Below are positions 1 to 40,783 of a stretch of 64,000 bases of DNA, in pieces. The translations under genes and the position numbers were made by a program. Within the stretch, counting starts at the first letter, position 1, and each line of letters begins with the position of its first letter. A model generated the notes under the pieces. The model was not told where the DNA came from. It worked only from the letters and a program-made list of their open reading frames with translations, and made no database searches. Source of the stretch: Candidatus Forterrea multitransposorum CG_2015-17_Forterrea_25_41 (GTDB lineage: Archaea > Iainarchaeota > Iainarchaeia > Iainarchaeales > CSSED10-239). The stretch spans positions 416,001 to 480,000 of the forward strand of contig CP045477.1 in NCBI GenBank assembly GCA_009392915.1, in the 5' to 3' direction.

Positions 1-140
1 GTTTTTTTACTAAATATATGTCTTAATAATCTACTCTTTCCAGAATTATTTCCACCTACAAAAATATTTAGTTTTGATAAACTATTAATAGTATCTGGAT
101 AACCTTCAAAATTTAATTTAATATTTTTAATTAATTCCAT
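1..140 (-). CDS. P-loop ATPase, N-terminal fragment (AAA15/ABC-like, restriction-linked type); truncated by window edge
   Basis: Reverse translation of 1-140 gives MELIKNIKLNFEGYPDTINSLSKLNIFVGGNNSGKSRLLRHIFSKK. The Walker A motif GGNNSGKS lies ~30 aa from the N-terminus, as in OLD/RloA-type ATPases. Its ATG (140-138) shares one base with the hsdS TAA (142-140). Confidence 0.6.
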   Translation of the reverse strand, partial: MELIKNIKLNFEGYPDTINSLSKLNIFVGGNNSGKSRLLRHIFSKK

Positions 141-1432
141 TAATATTTCACCCTTATTTTTCCAGACATTAATTTAGGTAATAATAAATCTCTTATTTCA
201 GATAATTTCTTATTTTGCCTTTTATTTTCTGAAATTTTAATAAATGTACTTCTGATCATTGAATTATATTTTTTCAATATTTCATTTGATGGATTCAATA
301 TCTGTATTTTCTGAATGTTTTCATTATTAATTGCTTGCATTGTTGTACCATTACATAAGTTATTTTTTATTATTTCAAAATCATCATTTAATACAAAATT
401 CCAAATATAATACAAAGCATTTTCTTTTATGTCTAACCCAGCAAATCCAGTAGATAAAATTAAATTTTCTAATTCCCAAGCGCTATACTTATCAAAATAA
501 GTTATTTTTTTACTATTTTTCATTTTAGCAAACCACACTGTATTCTCTTTAGGTTGCATATTTGCTCTTGATGGTCTTTTTATAAATGTAATTTTAGTAT
601 TATAATTTATTATTTCAGAATTATCTATATCTGCAGTTGCAACATATGTTTTTTCATCAAAGTCTTCTGTACCAACCTTTGTAAAAGACGTTAGATTATT
701 GTCTCCTAAATGCCCAACATCCCATCCTTTAGGTATTTCTTTTTTTAATTCTTTATTATAAACCATTTCTCCTCCACTAGATTTATAAGGTTCTCCTTTT
801 TCATTTGGAAATTCAAAATCAACAAACCATCTTTTAAATAAAGTTTTTCCTATTTCTTCAAGTGTTTGATTCATTTTTCTGTTTAGTTCTATTTTTTCAT
901 CTAAATCAGAAAGGATTTTTGCAATTTTTAACATTTCATTATTATTTTTTGGAACTATAACTAGTAATTTTTTAATATCCCCTAAACTAAGTGTTTTTTG
1001 TGTAGAACCACCAACATTTTTTTCAATTTGATTTAAAATATATTTAGAATTTAAGGCATAATATAAAAAATAACTGTTTATATTCGGGTTAATTATCACC
1101 GTATTTTGCCCTAAACAAAATAATTCTGTTGTATTTACAAAACTTGTAATTCCATATGTTCCAACCCTAGTCATTATGATATCATTTTGCTTTGGGATAT
1201 AATTTTTAGTAAATTCATCATAAATAGATTTAGTAACTTTTAATGTATTTGATAAATCTAAACTACCTGATTTCACATCAGTTACTCTTACCATTGATAT
1301 TCCTTTATTAACATAAATTGGAGTTTTATGACAAGAATCAATAACTATAGATATATCATTTAATGATTTAACGTCCCAATCTTTAGGAATTAATCCAATT
1401 TCTGTTTTTTTAAATTTTATTTTATTAATCAT
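140..1432 (-). CDS. hsdS: Type I restriction-modification specificity subunit HsdS
   Basis: 430 aa with two variable target-recognition halves, each opening with IPKDWDV/IPKGWDV. They are separated by conserved helical spacers (LSDLDEKIELNRKMNQTLEEIGKTLFKRWFVDFEFP, and C-terminal LSEIRDLLLPKLMSGKIRV). Confidence 0.85.
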   Translation of the reverse strand: MINKIKFKKTEIGLIPKDWDVKSLNDISIVIDSCHKTPIYVNKGISMVRVTDVKSGSLDLSNTLKVTKSIYDEFTKNYIPKQNDIIMTRVGTYGITSFVNTTELFCLGQNTVIINPNINSYFLYYALNSKYILNQIEKNVGGSTQKTLSLGDIKKLLVIVPKNNNEMLKIAKILSDLDEKIELNRKMNQTLEEIGKTLFKRWFVDFEFPNEKGEPYKSSGGEMVYNKELKKEIPKGWDVGHLGDNNLTSFTKVGTEDFDEKTYVATADIDNSEIINYNTKITFIKRPSRANMQPKENTVWFAKMKNSKKITYFDKYSAWELENLILSTGFAGLDIKENALYYIWNFVLNDDFEIIKNNLCNGTTMQAINNENIQKIQILNPSNEILKKYNSMIRSTFIKISENKRQNKKLSEIRDLLLPKLMSGKIRVKY

Positions 1433-2400
1433 AATATTTCCAATTTATGTTCTGAATTAACAATTTCATAAAAATCATTAATATAAGTAATTATGTTTAA
1501 ATATATCGTATTATTTTTTACATCTGATACTTCTATGTGAGAAGTTATTTCAAAAATAGATCCTGTTCTTGTTTCTTCAGGAATATTAATATTCTCAGAA
1601 TACTCTAAAATTCTAAAATTTTTAATTTTAACTTTATCTTCTCCAATTTCAATTTGATTTAATTTAGACATATAATCATTAATATAACTTTTAAAATCAT
1701 ATGAATTGCTAAATTCCTCAATTGAATTAATAAAATTTTCTTCAGGATAAATATTATCTAATTTAATAAATAAACCATCACCTATCGGTTCTATAACTAT
1801 ATCTTTATTAAATAACTCTTTAAATTCTAATGCACAATTTTTATTAAATCCTAAATCCCTTGTAATTAAAAATACATTTTCATAATCATCAAAATCTTGA
1901 GATAATATTGTCTCCCATATCAAGGCATCTTTAAAACCAGAATCAGATTTTTTATCTTTATTAAAAGGAGACTTTTTTTCTAATGCTCTTATTTTTAGAT
2001 CATTAAATTTTTGAAAAATTAAATCATCAGAAATTTTTAAAATTTTTATTTTGTTTTCAAAAATATAATTTCCAATTTTATCCAAAATAAAATCTTTTAT
2101 ATTAAAATCATCTGAAATTTTAAATAAGTTAATTTTCGAATCAATATAAGCATATCTTTTTTTAATGTCACCTAATTTTCTGCTATCGGATTTAAAACAA
2201 TCTCTTCTTTGTTTTTCTAATTCAAATAAAGTTATATCTGTTATTGATAATTTAATATATTCAAACAAATTTTTTTTAAAAATATAATCATACAATTTTT
2301 TAAAATCATTATTAAATGTAAAAGTATGATAATAAATATTATCACTACTATTTTCTTTTAACACATTTGTATCAAAAATAATTATTGTTTTTGGCATCAT
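1429..2400 (-). CDS. PIN-like nuclease domain protein (resembles DUF4935 family) with an uncharacterised C-terminal domain
   Basis: N-terminal IIIFDTNVL is a PIN strand-1 aspartate motif. Further acidic motifs are LFELEKQ, FKDALIWETIL and FLITRDLGF. It has 4-nt overlaps with both neighbours (ATGA type). The family name is from memory, not a search. Confidence 0.55.
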   Translation of the reverse strand: MMPKTIIIFDTNVLKENSSDNIYYHTFTFNNDFKKLYDYIFKKNLFEYIKLSITDITLFELEKQRRDCFKSDSRKLGDIKKRYAYIDSKINLFKISDDFNIKDFILDKIGNYIFENKIKILKISDDLIFQKFNDLKIRALEKKSPFNKDKKSDSGFKDALIWETILSQDFDDYENVFLITRDLGFNKNCALEFKELFNKDIVIEPIGDGLFIKLDNIYPEENFINSIEEFSNSYDFKSYINDYMSKLNQIEIGEDKVKIKNFRILEYSENINIPEETRTGSIFEITSHIEVSDVKNNTIYLNIITYINDFYEIVNSEHKLEIL

Positions 2401-2879
2401 TTAAAATCAAATATTTTCTTTTTATTAGAATAATTAATTATTATTTTATATTTTAAATTGTTTTCTAAATTCATCTCTTTTTCAAAATTTTCTTTTGAAC
2501 TATAATTTAATTTAACTAATATTTTATCAGTGTGATTTGGTTGTAATAGAAATGGAAATATAACTGGTTTATATGATGGTAGAGGATAACTTGTTTTTAA
2601 ACCAACACCCAAACTTACAGATTCAGATACATTCAAATAAACTGAATTAGGCATAAATTTAGTTTTATTATGATATAATTCCATCTTCTTAATTGTAGTT
2701 GGTCTTTGACCAACATTACTTAAATAAAAATAAATCCAAATTTCATTTTCATCCATCTTAACTTCTAAAACTTCTTTTTCAACATATAATTTAGGTTTAT
2801 TTTTACTTTCTATATAAAAAGATAATAATATACCTAATATTGCAACTATTAAACCCAATATACTAATTATATATTCCAT
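2397..2879 (-). CDS. Small membrane-anchored protein, unknown function
   Basis: The N-terminal hydrophobic helix IISILGLIVAILGILLSFYI is followed by a ~130-aa beta-looking domain. It is translationally coupled on both sides within the hsdM-hsdS operon. Confidence 0.5.
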   Translation of the reverse strand: MEYIISILGLIVAILGILLSFYIESKNKPKLYVEKEVLEVKMDENEIWIYFYLSNVGQRPTTIKKMELYHNKTKFMPNSVYLNVSESVSLGVGLKTSYPLPSYKPVIFPFLLQPNHTDKILVKLNYSSKENFEKEMNLENNLKYKIIINYSNKKKIFDFK

Positions 2880-3370
2880 TAGTTATCATTTTTCTTTTTA
2901 AACTTTCTAATTAATGCTAATAATAGTTCTTGTTTAAAAAATATTATACTTAGTAATTCTATACCAAAAGCAATATTTAAAACAACAGATAATTTAAAAT
3001 TATTAATTATTGTTTTGTAAATACTTATTTGACTATTTTCTATATTTTCAAATTTTTGATTTAAATTAGTTATTTGATACTGTATAATATTATAATCATT
3101 TTTTATTTCTTCAAAATCTTTTTTAGTTATATTTTCTGTTATTAATTTGTTATAGTCAGACTGACAATTTTTTAGTTGTGAACTAATCTGTATTATATTG
3201 TTATTTAATGTAATTTTATTTAATTCACAATTATTTAATTTATCTACAATAGGTTTACATTTATCCTCTGATAATAAACCAAACAATCCTTGTATAATTG
3301 GAATAAATATCATCACAATTATAAACACAACTAAAATACCTCCAATTATTGCAAATGGATTATCCGCCAT
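2879..3370 (-). CDS. Bitopic/hairpin membrane protein with a central coiled-coil, unknown function
   Basis: It has an N-terminal TM (FAIIGGILVVFIIVMIFIPIIQGLFGLL), an N/Q/I-rich heptad-like middle and a C-terminal TM (LSVVLNIAFGIELLSIIFF). A GAGGTGA Shine-Dalgarno-like motif sits inside the last hsdM codons, 7-8 nt before its ATG. Confidence 0.5.
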   Translation of the reverse strand: MADNPFAIIGGILVVFIIVMIFIPIIQGLFGLLSEDKCKPIVDKLNNCELNKITLNNNIIQISSQLKNCQSDYNKLITENITKKDFEEIKNDYNIIQYQITNLNQKFENIENSQISIYKTIINNFKLSVVLNIAFGIELLSIIFFKQELLLALIRKFKKKNDN

Positions 3371-3372
3371 AT

Positions 3373-4890
3373 CTATTTCACCTCAAAGCCGATTCCTTTA
3401 AGATTTTTCTTAATCTCTTCTTCTAATTTCTTAGATTCTTTAAATTGTTCGCTTAATTCTTTTGTAAGGCGAGTCATCTTTTCTTGAAAAACTTCAGGAT
3501 CTTCCTCTTCTTCCTTAAAACCAACGTAACGGCCAGGTGTAAGAATAAAGTCTTGCTTTTCAATCTCTTCAAGAGAGGCTGATTTACAAAAAGAAAGCTC
3601 ATCTTGATAACTTTTTTTGTTTATCGGGTCTTTTGACCTCCAAAGAGAAACAGTTTCTGAAATTTTTGTAAAATCTTCTTCAGTGAGTTCTCTTTGTCTT
3701 CTGTTAATCATTTGTCCAAGATTTCTAGCATCAATAAAAAGAGTTTCTCCTTTTCTATGTGCAGGTTTATTTCTATTAACAAACCAAAGACAAGCAGGAA
3801 TCATTGTATTATAAAATAATTGAGATGGAAGAGCAATAATACACTCTACAAGATCATCTTTAAGTATATTTTTTCTAATTTCTCCTTCTCCAGAAGTATT
3901 AGAACTTAAAGAACCGTTTGAAAGAACAAAACCAGCAATTCCTTTAGATCCTAAATGATAAATAAAATGTTGAACCCATGCAAAATTAGCGTTCCCTGCA
4001 GGAGGAACTCCATATTTCCAACGAGCATCCTCTCTTAATAGATCTCCAGACCAGTCTGAATCATTAAAAGGAGGATTTGCAATTATAAAATCAGCTCTTA
4101 AGTCTTTATGTTCATCATTTAGAAAACTACCTTCATTATTCCAAACAACTTTATTATCAATACCTCTTATTGCAAGATTCATTTTACATAATTTCCAAGT
4201 TGTTTGATTAGATTCTTGACCATAAATAGATATTTGACCTATTTTTCCACCATGTTTTTCAACAAACTCTTCAGATTGAACAAACATTCCTCCAGAACCA
4301 CAACAAGGGTCAAATATTCTTCCTTTAAAAGGTTGTATTATTTCAACTAATAATTTAACAATAGATTTAGGAGTATAGAATTGGCCTCCTTTTTTTCCTT
4401 CAGCAGAAGCAAATTGTCCTAAGAAATATTCATATACTCTTCCTAAGATATCTTTACTATTATCTTTAGAATTAAAAGAAATTGTTCCTATAAGATCAAT
4501 TAACGCTCCTAATTTTGTTTTATCTAAAGATGGTTTTGAATAATCTTTTGGAAGTATTCCTTTAAGTGTTGGATTTTCTTTTTCAATTAAATCCATTGAA
4601 TCATCAATAATTCTTCCAATTTCTATATTTTTTGCATTATCTTGAAGATATTCCCATCTTGCTTTTTTTGGAACATAAAATACTCTTTGAGAGACATATT
4701 CATCTTTATCTTCTGGGTCTGCATATTCTTCTTCTTTTAGTTTAGTATATAGTTCTTCAAAAGAATCAGATATATATTTTAAAAATATTAAACCTAAAAC
4801 TACATGTTTATATTCTGCAGCATCCATATTACTTCTTAATTTATCTGCTGCTTTCCAAAGCTTTTCTTCAAATCCTAAATCTTGAGTCAT
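3373..4890 (-). CDS. hsdM: Type I restriction-modification DNA methyltransferase subunit HsdM (N6-adenine)
   Basis: 505 aa with the HsdM N-terminal domain ([32 protein letters not shown]). The SAM motif is [11 protein letters not shown] and the catalytic motif IV is IIANPPFN. Confidence 0.92.
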
Positions 4891-4960
4891 AATTAATCTC
4901 TTCTTTTATATAAATATAATATACATCTAAACACTTTTAAAGGTATTATGTATTAAAAAA

Positions 4961-5347
4961 CTATTCAAATCTAATCTCTTTTCTATCATCTTCTATTGCT
5001 TGTTTTATTTTATTATATTCTTCTTCACTTAACTCTATTATATTACTATAAGTATAATCTTCCTTTGCAAGCTTAAATCTTTCTTGTAAAGAACGTGCAC
5101 CAAGACCTTTATTAGATAAAAGTAATAAAGAAAGTTTAATCTGATAAGGATATGGTTTTTTCCAAGAAGTAAATTCATTGTCTACTTTTTTAATAACTTT
5201 AAATATTCCAAAAATTACTCCTTGACCATAATATACAATAATATCATCTAAATTAACTAAATCTCTTTCATTTTTGTCTATAAAACCACAATATTCTTTT
5301 GTTTTAACAAAAGATTCCCAAGAATGGTTAATTAAGTAATATTTCAT
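4961..5347 (-). CDS. PUA-like fold protein (EVE / UPF0310-like)
   Basis: 128 aa. MKYYLINHSWESFVKTKEYCGF...DDIIVYYGQGVIFGIFKV matches the remembered EVE/UPF0310 pattern (YW-hydrophobic start, GD-x-hydrophobic-x-Y, then IxGIFxV). Confidence 0.4.
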   Translation of the reverse strand: MKYYLINHSWESFVKTKEYCGFIDKNERDLVNLDDIIVYYGQGVIFGIFKVIKKVDNEFTSWKKPYPYQIKLSLLLLSNKGLGARSLQERFKLAKEDYTYSNIIELSEEEYNKIKQAIEDDRKEIRFE

Positions 5348-5349
5348 TT

Positions 5350-6729
5350 TTAATCATATCTAAATCCATATTTTTCAGTTAATTTTTGCCATTCATCATG
5401 ATATTTTTTCCATTCATTATATTCAAATTCATCTAATACCTGGCCAGAACCATAACTATCTAATTTATTTTGCAAAAATTTTAATCTCAAATTATCATCA
5501 TATTCTTCTTTAACACTTTCAAAAGATTTACCTTCAGAAACAACATAAATATTTGGCTTTGAAATTAATTTACCTACTCCAATATAATCTCCATCACTAT
5601 CTGTAATAATACTTGGAGTTGTTGTTTCTATAAAACAATAACCAGAATTATTATAAGAATATTTAATTGGGCATTTTAATCCTATTGAAGCATGCTGCTC
5701 TAATTCAAAACTAAAAATTGCAACACCATAACCTAACTCTTTTAACATTAATGCAAGTAAATTTGTTTTATCCCCACAAACTCCTGTTTGATCATATAAT
5801 GTTTCATAAGCATATCTATTACTATAATTATGATTAAAAGAATCCCAATCATAAGGCATTGTTTGAACTAAACTGATTGCAATCCTTGCTTGATCATCAG
5901 TATTATTTGTTATTTTTTTAATTTCATTAATTAATGGTAGAATATATCTTTCTTGATCTTCAGTATTAACATACATTAATGACATATATTCAGAAGTAGG
6001 AGGAGATTCATAAGAAGAATAAGTTACTGTTCGAGGTAAATTTGACAAATAATAATTAAACCCATTATAGACAGTGTAATTAAAACTATTAGGTACACCT
6101 CTTAGAGTATAATTTAACTTAATTGGCTTAGGTTCAGTTTGCAATTTATGTAAACACTTCCCATTAATATAAATTTCATCTATATCACATAAACATTTTT
6201 CAGGAAACTCAATTAAATTACCTTTCTGACAAAAATAAGGCTTAATATTTGAACAATTATTATATAAAGTACCATCTTCACACCTATTAATAACAAAATT
6301 AAATAATAAATTCATAATTATATAAATTAGAATAATAATAATAACAATATTTCTTAATTGTTTAAATCTAATTTTTTTAAGTAAATGAATAACTAAAGTT
6401 AAAATTAAACTATTTAGTAAAATTATTATAAAAAAGTTAAAACTAACCTTTAATAATAGATAATTAAAACTTAATAAAATAATAACATAAACTAAAGTCC
6501 ATATAAATAAATAAAAATTAAATCTAAATTTATTTTTATAAATTATAACAGTTATTATGCGTGAAAATAAACTAAATATGATTGCTATAAATACTAATTT
6601 AGTGGTATTATTAACAATATTTAATAAATTTAAAAATAAAGAAGATAAATAATATAATAGACTATAAATTAATATCCAAAATAGAAACCAGTAAGATTTA
6701 TAAAATCTAAAAATATTATTATTTCTCAT
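5350..6729 (-). CDS. Polytopic membrane protein with Cys-rich linker and C-terminal transglutaminase-like cysteine protease domain
   Basis: About 5 N-terminal TM helices are followed by a Cys-rich stretch (CEDGTLYNNCSNIKPYFCQKGNLIEFPEKCLCDIDEIYINGKCLH). Next comes GVCGDKTNLLALMLKELGYGVAIFSFELEQHASIGLKC, which fits the transglutaminase-core Cys...His pattern. Confidence 0.6.
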   Translation of the reverse strand: MRNNNIFRFYKSYWFLFWILIYSLLYYLSSLFLNLLNIVNNTTKLVFIAIIFSLFSRIITVIIYKNKFRFNFYLFIWTLVYVIILLSFNYLLLKVSFNFFIIILLNSLILTLVIHLLKKIRFKQLRNIVIIIILIYIIMNLLFNFVINRCEDGTLYNNCSNIKPYFCQKGNLIEFPEKCLCDIDEIYINGKCLHKLQTEPKPIKLNYTLRGVPNSFNYTVYNGFNYYLSNLPRTVTYSSYESPPTSEYMSLMYVNTEDQERYILPLINEIKKITNNTDDQARIAISLVQTMPYDWDSFNHNYSNRYAYETLYDQTGVCGDKTNLLALMLKELGYGVAIFSFELEQHASIGLKCPIKYSYNNSGYCFIETTTPSIITDSDGDYIGVGKLISKPNIYVVSEGKSFESVKEEYDDNLRLKFLQNKLDSYGSGQVLDEFEYNEWKKYHDEWQKLTEKYGFRYD

Positions 6730-6746
6730 TTTATCACATTAATATT

Positions 6747-7028
6747 TCAATGTCTTTTTTTAATTGATCTTTTAGAAATATTAGAACTTCTATATCTTAC
6801 AGGTTTACTTTTTCTATAAGAATCTTTTAAAACAGAATCACTTTCATTTTTTAAATCATGAATAGTTGGTTCTTTATAACCTAACTGCTTTAAAGCAGAA
6901 TCAAATATCTTTGTAAAGCTTAAGTTATTCTCTTGTACAAATCTTTCTTGACTTTTTGTAATTCTCATATTTATTCTTATATTTCTTCTTTCTGGAGAAG
7001 TATCTCTTTTTACATCTTCTATATTCAT
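6747..7028 (-). CDS. Small basic protein, possible ribbon-helix-helix DNA-binding protein
   Basis: RINMRITKSQERFVQENNLSFTKIFDSALKQLG resembles a beta-strand/helix/helix RHH. I favour the internal start MNIEDVK (7028) over the track start at 7094. Confidence 0.35.
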   Translation of the reverse strand: MNIEDVKRDTSPERRNIRINMRITKSQERFVQENNLSFTKIFDSALKQLGYKEPTIHDLKNESDSVLKDSYRKSKPVRYRSSNISKRSIKKRH

Positions 7029-7164
7029 ATAAATCAATCCCTTAAATACACTTTTCCCAATCAAGAGCATAGTGTATATACAACTTTGACACAACGAGTT
7101 TATAAATAGATCGATTACACTAAAATATAATAAAAAGAGAAGATTAAAAAATAAATCTTATCTA

Positions 7165-7890
7165 CTAAACTTTAATCTCTATTAAAACAGGATTATGGTC
7201 ACTAAATCTTCTAATTTCATCATTTTCAAGAACTTTGCAAGAAATAATGTTTTTAAAAATAGGTTTATTCATAAAAAAGTAATCATTTTGCCACTTAACT
7301 TTACTTTTTTTATGTCTTAAGGTCTGTACAGGATATTCTTTATCAGTTAAATCAAAAGCATCAAAAAAATTAAAATCTTTTAATCTATCAAAAAAAATCT
7401 TATGAGAGTTATTATATTTATATATTAAATCAAATTGAATACTTGCATTTAAATCTCCCCCCAATATAATATTTCTTTTACCATTAAGTTTACCATAAAA
7501 CAAAGGAGATAAATCAGATAACATGCTATGTAGATTAGGAATTGAATAACCATCTGTCATAAGACCATATAATGATATAAAAGTAAGTTTTTTATTATTT
7601 ATAACAGTATTTGCTATTGTTAAAGATCCATTAAATTTAGTATTTATTGTTTCCTGAGAAAGATTGTATTTTTTACTATAAATTCCAGATCCCCAATTAC
7701 GATTTTTATCAATTTTATTCCAAATAAGATTTGAATCTTTTTTAATATGTTCAGGAGGATTTGATTCTTGAAATAAATATATATCTGCATCAATATTATT
7801 TAAAAAATAATCCCAAATATCTTTATTTAGCTTTTTATTTTTCCAATAATCCATATTCCAAGTAACTATTTTAATATTCATTCTTATCAA
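7165..7890 (-). CDS. Endonuclease/exonuclease/phosphatase (EEP) family protein
   Basis: The EEP signature motifs are IKIVTWNM, FQESN, GGDLNAS and C-terminal FSDHNPVLIEI. Confidence 0.8.
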   Translation of the reverse strand: MIRMNIKIVTWNMDYWKNKKLNKDIWDYFLNNIDADIYLFQESNPPEHIKKDSNLIWNKIDKNRNWGSGIYSKKYNLSQETINTKFNGSLTIANTVINNKKLTFISLYGLMTDGYSIPNLHSMLSDLSPLFYGKLNGKRNIILGGDLNASIQFDLIYKYNNSHKIFFDRLKDFNFFDAFDLTDKEYPVQTLRHKKSKVKWQNDYFFMNKPIFKNIISCKVLENDEIRRFSDHNPVLIEIKV

Positions 7891-7898
7891 TTTTTATT

Positions 7899-8738
7899 TT
7901 AAATAACCTTCTTAATATTCTTTTCCAAGTAAACAATAAACTTATCTTTATTCTTTCCTTTTAACTTTTCCCAAGAATTATATACTTTTCTTATTTTATC
8001 TTCTAAAATAATATCTTCTTTATCATTATATCTGTATCTTGCATATTTTTCTTTATTATAACCTAACTTATATGCTAAAATATTTTCAATAGTAGATGTA
8101 AAAGTTTCACTAAATGACTGCTTTTTTATTCCACCATATTTATCTAAAATATATTTTTCAATTCTATTATATATTTCATTATTTGAATTAATTACATGAA
8201 TAAGTTCATGAATTAATAAAATATATATTCTATTTTTAGTAAATTTTCTATAATCAACATCATCTCCTATAGATATATGAAAAGATAAATTTGTTGCAGA
8301 ACCTCCAAAACCAGGCCTTGTATTATTTGCAACAAAGAAAGTAGAGCTTACTTTTGTAGAATTATAAATAACATCTAAATAAGGTTTAATTATTTTAAGT
8401 TCTTTCTCTTTAAAATTAGTTATAAATGTATTTAGAAAATCTTCTGATTTTTTATTAATAACAATAGGAAATAATTTTTTTAAAACAATTAGATGTTTTT
8501 TTTCAATATTACTTAATTTTTTTTTATTAACAATATTATCTATTAAATTTTTGTAATTAAGCCTATTTGTAGAAATAATACTATAATCTTTATTAATCAA
8601 AAAAATTAAATCTACCATTTCTTTTAATTGATTTTTATTAGCAAAAGTATAAACTTTATCAATATTACAATATGCTTTACAAGCAAGTCTTAAATCTTTT
8701 GAAGGTTTTATTAAGTTTAGTTTAATATCAACACTCAT
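7899..8738 (-). CDS. Hypothetical protein with HExxH zinc-metallopeptidase-like motif
   Basis: 279 aa containing LLIHELIHVINS (HExxH). It lies 8 nt upstream of the EEP gene on the same strand. I recognise no further family. Confidence 0.4.
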   Translation of the reverse strand: MSVDIKLNLIKPSKDLRLACKAYCNIDKVYTFANKNQLKEMVDLIFLINKDYSIISTNRLNYKNLIDNIVNKKKLSNIEKKHLIVLKKLFPIVINKKSEDFLNTFITNFKEKELKIIKPYLDVIYNSTKVSSTFFVANNTRPGFGGSATNLSFHISIGDDVDYRKFTKNRIYILLIHELIHVINSNNEIYNRIEKYILDKYGGIKKQSFSETFTSTIENILAYKLGYNKEKYARYRYNDKEDIILEDKIRKVYNSWEKLKGKNKDKFIVYLEKNIKKVI

Positions 8739-8805
8739 AAAGATATCTATTAAATAAAGGTTTTTTAAAAGTTATGTTTAATAAGGAGCTATCATAAACT
8801 AAAAA

Positions 8806-9147
8806 TTAAACATTTACCCAAATAACACAACCTTTCTTATGAACGTAAGGTTTTGGAGAAGAATATCTTTTGATATCAGACAATACCCAAGCATGAGGAT
8901 TATTATATTTTAAATCTAAAACATCTTCTTTCTTTATTTGATGCTTTTCTAAGTTTTTAAATAAAATATCTTTGTTAATTTTTATTGAATCTTTAATAGT
9001 ACATTCACCATATACTTTTTTGCTGCCACTCATAATAAGAGCAATTCTTTCACCAATCTTTGAAGTATTAAAGTTTCTTATCTCCCAAGTCTTTTTTCCT
9101 TCTAAGATTAAATTTAACCATTTTTCTTTAATTATAAGGCCTTTCAT
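8806..9147 (-). CDS. ASCH domain protein (PUA-like fold)
   Basis: 113 aa. MKGLIIKEKWLNLILEGKKTWEIRNFNTSKIGERIALIMSG matches the typical ASCH N-terminus (IKxxWaxlIlxGkKTxEiR). Confidence 0.7.
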   Translation of the reverse strand: MKGLIIKEKWLNLILEGKKTWEIRNFNTSKIGERIALIMSGSKKVYGECTIKDSIKINKDILFKNLEKHQIKKEDVLDLKYNNPHAWVLSDIKRYSSPKPYVHKKGCVIWVNV

Positions 9148-9244
9148 AAAAGATATCTATATTTCAAAAGGCTTTTAAACTCTTTTATGTAGTAATTAAA
9201 CTATTTATTAAAAAACAAAAATATATCTTAATTAAGATGATAAA

Positions 9245-10603
9245 TTATTTATCAATAACTTTCCAATATCCTGCTTTGTCTGAACCTATTCTTTTTATCT
9301 TCTTTTGCTCTTTTAATATTTTTAAATATCTTTCAATAGTCTTTGTACTTAAATTAAATTCTGTTGCCATTTGAGCATAAGTAACTTTATTATTAGCTTT
9401 AATTAATTTTAATATTTTTACACCGACATTTACACCGACATTTACACCGACATTTACACCGACATTTACAGTGTCTTTTACAGGTGCATTTACACCGACA
9501 TTCATAGTAGATTCTATTATTTTTTGTCTTTTAAAAACAATACAAAACCAATCAGTATCTATATTAAACTTAACACTTGGAAAAAGTTTTTTTATTCTTT
9601 TAATACCAGAACCAATCTTTTCAATAAACTCTGTTCTTTGTAAACAACCTGCTAAAATAGGATTTCTTAATATACTTACTTTTCCAAAATCTTTTGGACT
9701 AAAAAGAAGTTTTCCTGGATTTAATATTTCAACTCTATCTTCATACACTTCTACCAATATTCTTCCTTGAACAAAATAATCTCTATGAATCATGGCATTT
9801 AGTACTGCTTCCCTTAAAGCAGCCTCTGGTATTTCAGGGGTTTCAACTCTTCTTAAATTAATAATATCAGCCCGTGTTTTTGTATTTCTTAGGATAAATA
9901 ACACAGCATTTTCAAAATTTGATAAAAAGTCAGATTCAAATACTTTTTTATCAAGCATAACAGCCTTAGTATCTCCTTGGTATAAAACACAACTAATATC
10001 TGCATTTAAAAAGAATTTAGTAATTCTTTTTGAAAATAATAATGCACAGGCATTATTTGGAATATCATTTGTTAAAAGATTTAAATTTTTTAAAATATGC
10101 TCTTTTGATAGAGTTGTTGAAAATTTTGCTTTTTTTCTATATTTAAGAAATTTAGTATTATCTATATCTTTAAAATTAAATGAAGAAGTTTGTTTTTCAA
10201 AAGAAATTTTATTTTCGTTTTGTAAAAAATCAATAATTTCATTTCTATCTAGCTTTTGAGAGTTAGCACCTTGCCTTACATAAAAAGAACCACCTACTAA
10301 ATATGGTTTATCTTTTCCTAAAGGAACATATATTATACCAATATTATCTATGATTTCAAAATTAACAACTAAAGAGGGATCTATGTTTCTTGCAATTGTT
10401 TGTACTTCAGAGGAAAATCTATTGTTTATAGAAATACCTTTTATTTCTCCTTTATCTGTAACTCCTAAAAGAATTTTACCTCCATCTGAGTTTGCAAAAG
10501 CACAAATTGATTTTCCAATTTCTTTATGGTTTAAACTTTCTTTAAACTCAAGAGTATATCCTTCTCCTGTTTTTATAAGATTAAGTAAGTTCTTTTTATC
10601 CAT
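9245..10603 (-). CDS. AlbA_2 (Schlafen-like) / HATPase_c_4-type putative transcriptional regulator with C-terminal wHTH
   Basis: The N-terminus LIKTGEGYTLEFKESLN...ICAFANSDGGKILLGV is the divergent-AAA/AlbA_2 signature. The middle has REAVLNAMIHRDY and the C-terminus is a wHTH (VTYAQMATEFNLSTKTIERYLKILKEQKKIKRIG). Confidence 0.75.
   Translation of the reverse strand: MDKKNLLNLIKTGEGYTLEFKESLNHKEIGKSICAFANSDGGKILLGVTDKGEIKGISINNRFSSEVQTIARNIDPSLVVNFEIIDNIGIIYVPLGKDKPYLVGGSFYVRQGANSQKLDRNEIIDFLQNENKISFEKQTSSFNFKDIDNTKFLKYRKKAKFSTTLSKEHILKNLNLLTNDIPNNACALLFSKRITKFFLNADISCVLYQGDTKAVMLDKKVFESDFLSNFENAVLFILRNTKTRADIINLRRVETPEIPEAALREAVLNAMIHRDYFVQGRILVEVYEDRVEILNPGKLLFSPKDFGKVSILRNPILAGCLQRTEFIEKIGSGIKRIKKLFPSVKFNIDTDWFCIVFKRQKIIESTMNVGVNAPVKDTVNVGVNVGVNVGVNVGVKILKLIKANNKVTYAQMATEFNLSTKTIERYLKILKEQKKIKRIGSDKAGYWKVIDK
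9421..9504. repeat. 12-bp in-frame tandem repeat (caccgacattta): 4 perfect plus 3 degenerate units
   Basis: Perfect units lie at 9421-9468 and degenerate units at 9469-9504. On the minus strand they encode (VNVG)n in the linker before the wHTH of the AlbA_2 protein. Confidence 0.9.
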
Positions 10604-40511: not shown

Positions 40512-40783
40512 TGTACAGGCACTTACTGGTCGAAAAACAGTTCAAGAAAACATTTAGCTTTATAAAATCTCAAGTCCGCAACCCAAAAAGCATCAAACAC
40601 TTAGGATACTGCTGCTTCCTTCCGGATCTGACAGGGTTTACTAAGATATTCGATCTTAATGGACGAACCGTCAGCAATTTTACAAAGAGTGCCTCCTTGC
40701 TTATTTGCCTTCCAGTAATAATCACTCCGGCTATGTAGATTTCCGGTAACAGGAGACTACAACCCCCCCAGCTAGCCTATACA
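40512..40783 (-). ncRNA. Signal recognition particle RNA (archaeal 7S-type)
   Basis: This is a GC-rich island in AT-rich DNA. The minus strand contains GUCAGAUCCGGAAGGAAGCAGCAG (about 40609-40633), the universal helix-8 motif (compare E. coli 4.5S GGUCCGGAAGGAAGCAGCC). The 5' Alu-like segment is GGCUAGCUGGGGGGUUGUAGUCUCCUGUUACCGGAAA. Terminal pairing UGUAUAGGC/GCCUGUACA closes the molecule. The ends are approximate. Confidence 0.8.

Follow-up and report, generated by a model that had tools for sequence, protein, structure and literature searches.

Accessory genes at the subunit junctions of a type I restriction-modification operon in Candidatus Forterrea multitransposorum

Why would a type I restriction-modification operon carry two small membrane proteins and a nuclease-like protein between the genes of its methyltransferase (hsdM) and specificity (hsdS) subunits? 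The question is raised by the left end of a 64,000-nucleotide (nt) stretch of contig CP045477.1 (positions 416,001 to 480,000) of Candidatus Forterrea multitransposorum, a small-genome DPANN-type archaeon. The whole of this stretch is referred to here as the window, and the part of the operon that lies beyond its left edge was read from the host contig (locus label L001). We consider it probable that the junctions between the subunit genes of this operon act as slots for accessory, most likely antiviral, genes. The first slot (hsdM to hsdS) comprises three separable modules, namely the transmembrane (TM) proteins TM1 and TM2 and a PIN_12 protein, and the second (hsdS to hsdR) contains an OLD-family ATPase-TOPRIM nuclease.

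The type I operon and its junctions

The full operon reads hsdM, TM1, TM2, PIN, hsdS, a gene for a 627-amino acid (aa) OLD-family ATPase-TOPRIM nuclease, hsdR and a gene for a 214-aa membrane protein (Table 1). The six minus-strand open reading frames (ORFs) at the left end of the window and all five of their junctions were re-read from the sequence and the ORF list, and every coordinate given for the six cistrons and their junctions by an earlier reading of the DNA alone (the sequence-only reading) proved correct. The hsdM stop codon (TAG) lies at 3375-3373 and the TM1 start codon (ATG) at 3370, with GAGGTGA within the final hsdM codons. TM1 ends and TM2 begins on the shared base 2879, TM2 and PIN as well as PIN and hsdS overlap by ATGA (2397-2400 and 1429-1432, respectively), and base 140 is common to the hsdS TAA and the ATG of an ORF reading MELIK...VGGNNSGKS, which contains a Walker A motif. 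Because the stop and start codons of all genes overlap in a chain, one shared transcript starting upstream of hsdM is probable, from which all operon genes would be made together. The leader upstream of hsdM is the sole real gap in this gene string; it contains an AT-rich TTTATATA box about 20 nt ahead of the hsdM ATG and may serve as the promoter region.

The restriction-modification core was identified with Pfam and PADLOC, in agreement with the sequence-only reading, which saw a type I operon with passengers in the hsdM-hsdS interval and a coupled P-loop ATPase gene after hsdS. HsdM matches Pfam HsdM_N (E 1e-27) and N6_Mtase (E 4e-111) and the PADLOC model MTase_I (E 2e-217), and it contains the S-adenosylmethionine-binding motif DPCCGSG as well as an NPPF motif. 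Sister archaeal loci encode HsdM proteins with 73-84% identity to it, a range that leaves out locus L015, of which only an hsdM fragment is available. HsdS matches Pfam Methylase_S (E 4e-17) and, over its full length (residues 17-429), PADLOC Specificity_I (E 5e-92). That no hsdR was found by the sequence-only reading holds for the window, because the window ends before this gene; on the host contig, a 1018-aa hsdR stands just past the ATPase gene, which it overlaps by 4 nt. HsdR comprises the Pfam domains HSDR_N, ResIII/SWI2_SNF2 and T1RH-like_C, its PD...ELK nuclease motif, GSGKS Walker A motif and DEAH box are intact, and its closest solved structure is that of EcoR124I HsdR (E 1e-48). Since the HsdR and HsdM motifs are intact and hsdR is present, the restriction system looks complete and active, and on these sequence features it is apparently functional.

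The central conserved region of hsdS (window 722-925) shows 83-92% DNA identity across all sister loci. Taken together with a second region (142-248), it is 79-92% DNA-identical among these loci despite their differing target-recognition domains. Conserved central and C-terminal hsdS regions are the usual substrates for recognition-domain swaps.

The gene in the second slot was only partly contained in the window. On leftward extension, the C-terminus of the ATPase proved to hold a TOPRIM nuclease domain, which places the protein in the OLD family. Its Pfam matches are AAA_15 and AAA_21 (E 5e-17 and 5e-16) and, weakly, the OLD TOPRIM domain (E 0.006). The motifs comprise Walker A (GGNNSGKS), Walker B (FIEEPE), the H-loop (TTHS), the TOPRIM glutamate (WVEG) and the DxD motif (ADNDG). 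PADLOC models of NsnB, AriA, GajA and Old match with similar scores (E 1e-13 to 1e-18), so the protein cannot be assigned to a subfamily. No GajB UvrD-like helicase lies next to the gene, whose only neighbours are hsdS and hsdR. The 214-aa ORF that overlaps the 3' end of hsdR by 8 nt encodes an N-terminal TM helix and a beta-rich domain. Its architecture is like that of TM2, but it was rejected as a TM2 paralogue (hhalign probability 0.5%).

Exchange of cargo between sister loci

In the sister loci, the two slots hold other combinations of genes. Where the window has TM1, TM2 and PIN in slot 1 and the OLD nuclease in slot 2, L003 has a 379-aa membrane protein and PIN in slot 1 and a 422-aa protein in slot 2; L012 has DUF3800, a 219-aa protein and TM2, followed by a 292-aa protein; and L015 has the Shedu protein SduA (PADLOC E 7e-71), TM2 and PIN, followed by a 407-aa protein. 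In L017 and L018, a TM1-like protein, TM2 and a 267-aa protein fill slot 1 and a 706-aa protein slot 2. L019, whose HsdM is 97.5% identical to that of L018, has TM1 and an AAA_15 ATPase in slot 1, where its contig ends, with slot 2 beyond the contig end. The 379-aa protein of L003 was considered as a TM1-TM2 fusion and rejected, as BLASTP gave no similarity. By eye, the slot-2 proteins of L003 (5050-6318) and L015 (4325-5548) have a C-terminal Rx4H motif (RHNYVH and RSDIVH, respectively) that recalls HEPN RNases; no family or profile match and no mutual similarity was found for these two proteins.

The turnover is also seen at strain-level divergence. In locus L066 (JGI Ga0114934_10037878), the DNA matches the window at 93.7% identity as far as the hsdM stop codon, and no similarity is left across the TM1 gene (window 3373-2900). 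The match resumes 20 nt ahead of the TM2 ATG, at 92% identity, and runs through TM2 and PIN into the start of hsdS. In place of TM1, L066 (573-1026) has a gene for a protein of 93 aa with three TM helices and an ORF of 63 aa. The position directly after hsdM is occupied by a small membrane protein, of differing families, in the window, L003, L017, L019 and L066.

TM1, TM2 and PIN are therefore independent modules and not a fixed unit. The sequence-only reading had presented the PIN protein and the two membrane proteins as one set, but they recombine with other cargo in the sister loci, and a fixed three-gene system is not supported because the three assort independently. In its strongest form, such a system would be one obligate abortive-infection system, in which a membrane sensor/effector pair and a nuclease, with the ATPase as partner, are held in check by the restriction complex. 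The three genes are translationally coupled in the window, and pairs of them recur (TM1-like protein and TM2 in L017/L018, TM2 and PIN in L015), as this explanation would have it. However, the complete trio was seen only in this population, in the near-identical copies L001, L002 and L065. PIN is found without any membrane gene in about 35 bacterial or archaeal loci, TM2 without PIN in L012 and L017, and TM1 without TM2 in L019 and L020, whereas L066 retains TM2 and PIN with unrelated genes in place of TM1. Unrelated genes also fill the ATPase slot in sister loci. We regard an obligate trio as improbable.

Such fast turnover would also suit selfish hitch-hikers or addiction modules that travel on a well-expressed, horizontally mobile operon and have no antiviral role, the more so since type I operons are often transferred between genomes. 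The guanine-cytosine content of the cassette genes (15-21%) is also below that of hsdM (about 31%; window overall about 22%). Against this speaks the nature of the sister cargo, which includes the validated defence gene Shedu as well as defence-typical ABC-ATPase and OLD families. Furthermore, the ratio of nonsynonymous to synonymous substitution rates (dN/dS) against L066 is 0.35 for TM2, 0.42 for PIN and 0.12 for hsdM: TM2 and PIN are under purifying selection, looser than that on hsdM. Finally, the PIN-hsdM junction is kept across two domains of life. Mere hitch-hiking is very hard to reconcile with these points and is the least credible of the explanations considered here. Nor is the cassette a simple bounded insertion, in line with the sequence-only reading: only low-identity AT-rich chance matches flank it and the operon contains no integrase or recombinase, so that a transposon or integrative cassette was rejected.

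The two membrane proteins themselves have few relatives. TM1 consists of a TM helix, a coiled-coil-like stretch of about 90 aa, a second TM helix and a lysine-rich tail; its loop has largely conserved cysteine residues and a conserved ITKKD core within the LITENITKKDFEEIK stretch. It matches no Pfam, NCBIfam or PADLOC family and has four homologues (36-54% identity), of which the contexts could be read in L019 and L020, both type I loci. For TM2, an N-terminal TM helix and an immunoglobulin-like (Ig-like) beta-sandwich were predicted (predicted local distance difference test score 84), with generic structural matches only; four lysine residues follow the TM helix, suggesting that the domain is cytoplasmic. 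A TM2 profile search of 1.8 billion representatives gave only 15 clusters, each of about 160 aa except for one 95-aa fragment. Nothing rose above noise in Pfam, NCBIfam and PADLOC, and PHROGs gave a weak match to phrog_4989 only. In every context examined, the close TM2 homologues (48-64% identity) lie between hsdM and hsdS. Neither TM1 nor TM2 was found in viral contigs, and TM2 occurs in just three loci of the JGI metagenomes, none beyond those already known. A membrane effector, entry exclusion and tethering are candidates for the role of TM1 and TM2.

PIN_12 as a companion of hsdM

The 323-aa protein belongs to Pfam family PIN_12/DUF4935 (PF16289; 44.3 bits against a cut-off of 32, E 3e-11, residues 7-185) and has the PIN fold; the identical protein is labeled by NCBI as DUF4935 domain-containing protein. 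Its acidic set, which the sequence-only reading took to be intact, is indeed complete: D10, E60, D158 and D182 are unchanged in six close homologues, and in a 49-sequence alignment they are conserved in 48/48, 49/49, 49/49 and 47/49 sequences, respectively, the count for D158 being biased because this residue sits within the motif used to collect the sequences. Judged from these residues, the active site is intact and conserved, and the protein is predicted to be a nuclease, probably an RNase. No antitoxin-like gene lies beside PIN_12, its upstream neighbour being TM2 in the window and hsdM in bacteria.

To place PIN_12 relatives, one genome per GTDB species was scanned with the PIN alignment, loci were selected by the motif FKDA[LV][IL]WE, and neighbouring genes were placed by local tblastn. 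Type I operons contain 36 of the 44 species-level PIN_12 loci: the gene stands directly after hsdM in 30, between hsdS and hsdR in four and after hsdR in two, and the remaining eight lie in operons without type I genes. Four of the five metagenomic PIN relatives follow hsdM immediately, and all three matches on viral contigs show the order hsdM-PIN-hsdS. A tblastn search of PLSDB gave no match on plasmids. When 30 hsdM-PIN junctions were scored (27 from the genome scan and three from viral contigs), the PIN ATG was found 8-17 nt inside the 3' end of hsdM in 28. Comparison of HsdM and HsdR places all host systems in a single type I family. Most hosts are Bacillota; the others include a Bathyarchaeota metagenome-assembled genome, an uncultured archaeon and Methanimicrococcus hacksteinii. 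The hsdM-hsdS slot of the bacterial loci contains no membrane genes. PIN_12 is thus a widespread hsdM companion in Bacillota and several archaea. The passenger is not an oddity of this locus: it recurs next to hsdM in these lineages without the membrane genes. The neighbourhood survey showed homologues of all three passengers to be linked to hsdM or hsdS elsewhere.

Six of the PIN_12-bearing type I operons (L035, L046, L050, L057, L058 and L059; bacterial, with one from a methanogen) carry several hsdS copies, and the bacterial ones additionally encode a 328-aa recombinase. We read these operons as phase-variable hsdS shufflons. Those of gut Firmicutes are near-identical across genera, which suggests a mobile element.

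How might such a companion work? In the mechanism that we propose, the restriction enzyme would form the first defence line by cutting unmethylated incoming DNA. PIN_12, which has long accompanied this restriction family, would be a nuclease (probably an RNase) kept latent: the methyltransferase core would hold or regulate it until a virus disables or escapes restriction, upon which it would be released. Its function would then parallel that of PrrC. The remaining cargo, namely the OLD nuclease and the two small membrane proteins, would be exchangeable gene by gene. This guard or backup logic is most attractive for PIN_12 because an antitoxin is missing, the start codon lies inside hsdM, the active site is intact and the embedding is near-exclusive, and a PrrC-like guard role of the PIN nuclease is plausible by analogy.

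The same junction also allows a different role. PIN_12 could serve this type I family as an auxiliary subunit or a regulator, such as an extra nuclease, an end-processing enzyme, an assembly or control factor that tunes restriction versus methylation, or an enhancer; PcrIIC1, which boosts Cas9, is a model for the last variant. The start codon overlap with hsdM, conserved across bacteria and archaea, the limitation to a single HsdM/HsdR family and the missing antitoxin gene would all suit a subunit, which makes this a serious rival to the guard role. A subunit would not be expected, however, to diverge far faster than its partner: in other host loci, the identity to the window proteins is 51-68% for HsdM and 37-52% for HsdR but 28-37% for PIN (full-length matches), and dN/dS is 0.42 for PIN against 0.12 for hsdM. 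In addition, PIN has moved to a position after hsdS or hsdR in six loci, is absent from the seemingly complete sister operons L012 and L017, and occurs in eight loci without a restriction system. On balance, we hold the auxiliary role to be unlikely.

Several observations weigh against our reading of the junctions as slots for antiviral genes. PIN-like folds are also known as non-catalytic or DNA-directed accessory proteins. PIN_12 can exist without a restriction system, as in the eight operons devoid of type I genes, and two distant TM2 relatives are stand-alone genes. The fold searches for TM1 and TM2 offered no functional clue. The PIN_12 protein of the window has no PADLOC match at E values up to 0.1, and because neither PADLOC-DB v2 nor NCBIfam holds a model of its subfamily, its defence role is argued from gene context. 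The motif used to select loci means that the scan covers one subfamily, not the whole of PF16289. Moreover, DUF4935 has been described as a new family of PIN proteins whose genes are usually monocistronic (PMC5499597). The same work remarks in general terms on a coupling of certain PIN-like genes with type I subunits, and it is the nearest that a literature search came to DUF4935/PIN_12 inside type I operons, for which no descriptive paper was found.

The slot reading remains the one that we favour. It could be extended to a more specific claim, in which PIN_12 is a dedicated fourth component of one type I family in Bacteria and Archaea, co-translated with HsdM, kept in check by the core and fired when restriction is blocked, with TM1 and TM2 linking the system to the envelope in DPANN archaea. 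We see this extension as possible but doubtful. If true, PIN_12 would be a second, structurally unrelated restriction guard of the PrrC kind.

Surroundings of the operon and comparison with known systems

Upstream of the operon, the 128-aa ORF that precedes the leader matched nothing in the family databases or the PDB. An ORF upstream of hsdM in L012 is syntenic with it and 74% identical, in an unbroken DNA match, so that it may be a conserved component of the module. The minus-strand neighbours beyond it (window 5350-10603) resemble a defence island. In this island, gene calls differ between L001 and L002 (locus coordinates 830-2188 and 4704-6083), the Schlafen-like protein having 452 versus 444 aa and the transglutaminase-like protein 321 versus 459 aa, which suggests polymorphism or frameshifts.

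Table 1. Features of the operon and its surroundings. Coordinates are those of the window unless marked L001 (locus on the host contig).
Feature	Coordinates	Strand	Basis or remark
OLD-family ATPase-TOPRIM nuclease gene, first 46 of 627 codons	1..140	-	Walker A; gene runs past window edge
hsdS, specificity subunit, 430 aa, two target-recognition domains	140..1432	-	Pfam Methylase_S, PADLOC
PIN_12 (DUF4935) protein, 323 aa, N-terminal VapC-type PIN and C-terminal alpha+beta domain	1429..2400	-	Pfam PF16289
TM2, 160 aa, one N-terminal TM helix and Ig-like beta-sandwich	2397..2879	-	ORF, predicted structure
TM1, 163-aa hairpin membrane protein	2879..3370	-	ORF; no family match
hsdM, type I methyltransferase subunit, 505 aa	3373..4890	-	Pfam, PADLOC, motifs
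Leader upstream of hsdM	4891..4960	-	Read from sequence
128-aa ORF upstream of hsdM	4961..5347	-	Synteny with sister locus L012
Multi-TM transglutaminase-like protein	5350-6729	-	
Exo_endo_phos nuclease/phosphatase	7165-7890	-	
ASCH protein	8806-9147	-	
Schlafen AlbA_2, HATPase_c_4 and helix-turn-helix protein	9245-10603	-	PADLOC pAgo-model match E 4e-19, weaker SIR2-type matches
Archaeal signal recognition particle RNA	40512-40783	-	118 bits; with the tRNA genes, evidence of an archaeal host
Four tRNA genes	22321, 46775, 49092, 51986		
OLD-family gene, full span, 627 aa	L001 11293-13176		
hsdR, 1018 aa	L001 13173-16229		Outside window
214-aa ORF after hsdR	L001 16222-16866		

The nesting of accessory defence genes in type I operons is already known. 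New are the cargo families, which are undescribed, the strict PIN_12-hsdM association across two domains of life and the cassette-type turnover visible in a DPANN lineage. Guards and complementary defences are already known among the accessory genes of such operons, but few of these families have been studied. PIN_12 is tied to hsdM about as closely as PrrC is reported to be to type I systems, in hosts that range from gut and environmental Bacillota to methanogens, Bathyarchaeota and DPANN archaea, and the defence catalogues searched do not contain the subfamily. The main value of the locus is that it leads to an uncharacterised family of putative nucleases dedicated to type I restriction; in addition, cargo turnover can be seen here at strain-level divergence. 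Several hosts are in culture, among them Clostridium frigoris DSM 14204, Thomasclavelia cocleata DSM 1551, Filifactor villosus CCUG 46385 and Methanimicrococcus hacksteinii, so that the guard hypothesis is directly testable. As restriction-modification systems are under-represented in DPANN archaea according to a recent survey (PMC12988326), a complete type I operon in a DPANN-type archaeon gains some interest of its own.

The 627-aa protein has the layout of the OLD family (P2 Old, Gabija GajA, PARIS AriA/AriB), in which an ABC-type ATPase precedes a TOPRIM domain; the catalytic glutamate and the DxD motif of the latter are present. Unlike in Gabija and PARIS, neither a GajB-type helicase nor a separate AriB accompanies its gene. 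ATPase/TOPRIM pairs (AbiL-like, RloA/RloB) are known between hsdS and hsdR, and the OLD-type ATPase of the window resembles these. PARIS senses anti-restriction proteins, which fits an OLD-type gene placed inside a restriction operon.

With VapBC, PIN_12 shares the VapC-type PIN fold and the four conserved acidic residues. It differs in the missing VapB-like antitoxin gene, in its size (320-360 aa versus about 130 aa for VapC) and in its extra C-terminal domain.

Defence functions are over-represented among genes nested in type I systems, and guilt-by-embedding has yielded the HEC and PDC sets of candidate systems. Such nesting of defence genes is frequent in type I, BREX, DISARM and Hma operons, and ABC ATPases paired with a TOPRIM or PIN protein are among the nested genes (Payne et al. 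2024, bioRxiv 10.1101/2024.01.29.577857). PIN_12, TM1 and TM2 match none of the 5027 PADLOC-DB v2 models, which include PDC and HEC; eight bacterial and archaeal PIN_12 homologues gave no match to that database either, save two weak C-terminal matches to unrelated models. The partner of the PIN protein in HEC-03 is an ABC ATPase, whereas that of PIN_12 is hsdM.

Type I operons also house PrrC, TgvAB and the rlo genes (PMC12707154, PMC11411939). TgvAB resembles the cargo of the window in that variable accessory genes are placed between type I subunits, and it acts as an independent defence that complements the restriction of its host. The families differ (GmrSD/DUF262 versus PIN_12, TM1 and TM2), and in the window the host is archaeal and two slots are filled.

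The closest parallel for PIN_12 is offered by PrrC (from the E. coli type IC system EcoprrI) and RloC, which are latent nucleases embedded in type I operons and found almost exclusively there; the embedding of PIN_12 is similarly strict (36/44 loci). In PrrC, encoded between hsdS and hsdR, an anticodon-nuclease domain is fused to an ABC-ATPase. PIN_12, by contrast, has no ATPase, combines a VapC-type PIN fold with an NTF2-like domain, and usually sits in the hsdM-hsdS slot with its start overlapping hsdM. As PIN_12 does not share the ABC-ATPase and anticodon nuclease architecture of PrrC/RloC, only its mode of action could resemble that of PrrC, which is proposed to act once restriction has been disabled.

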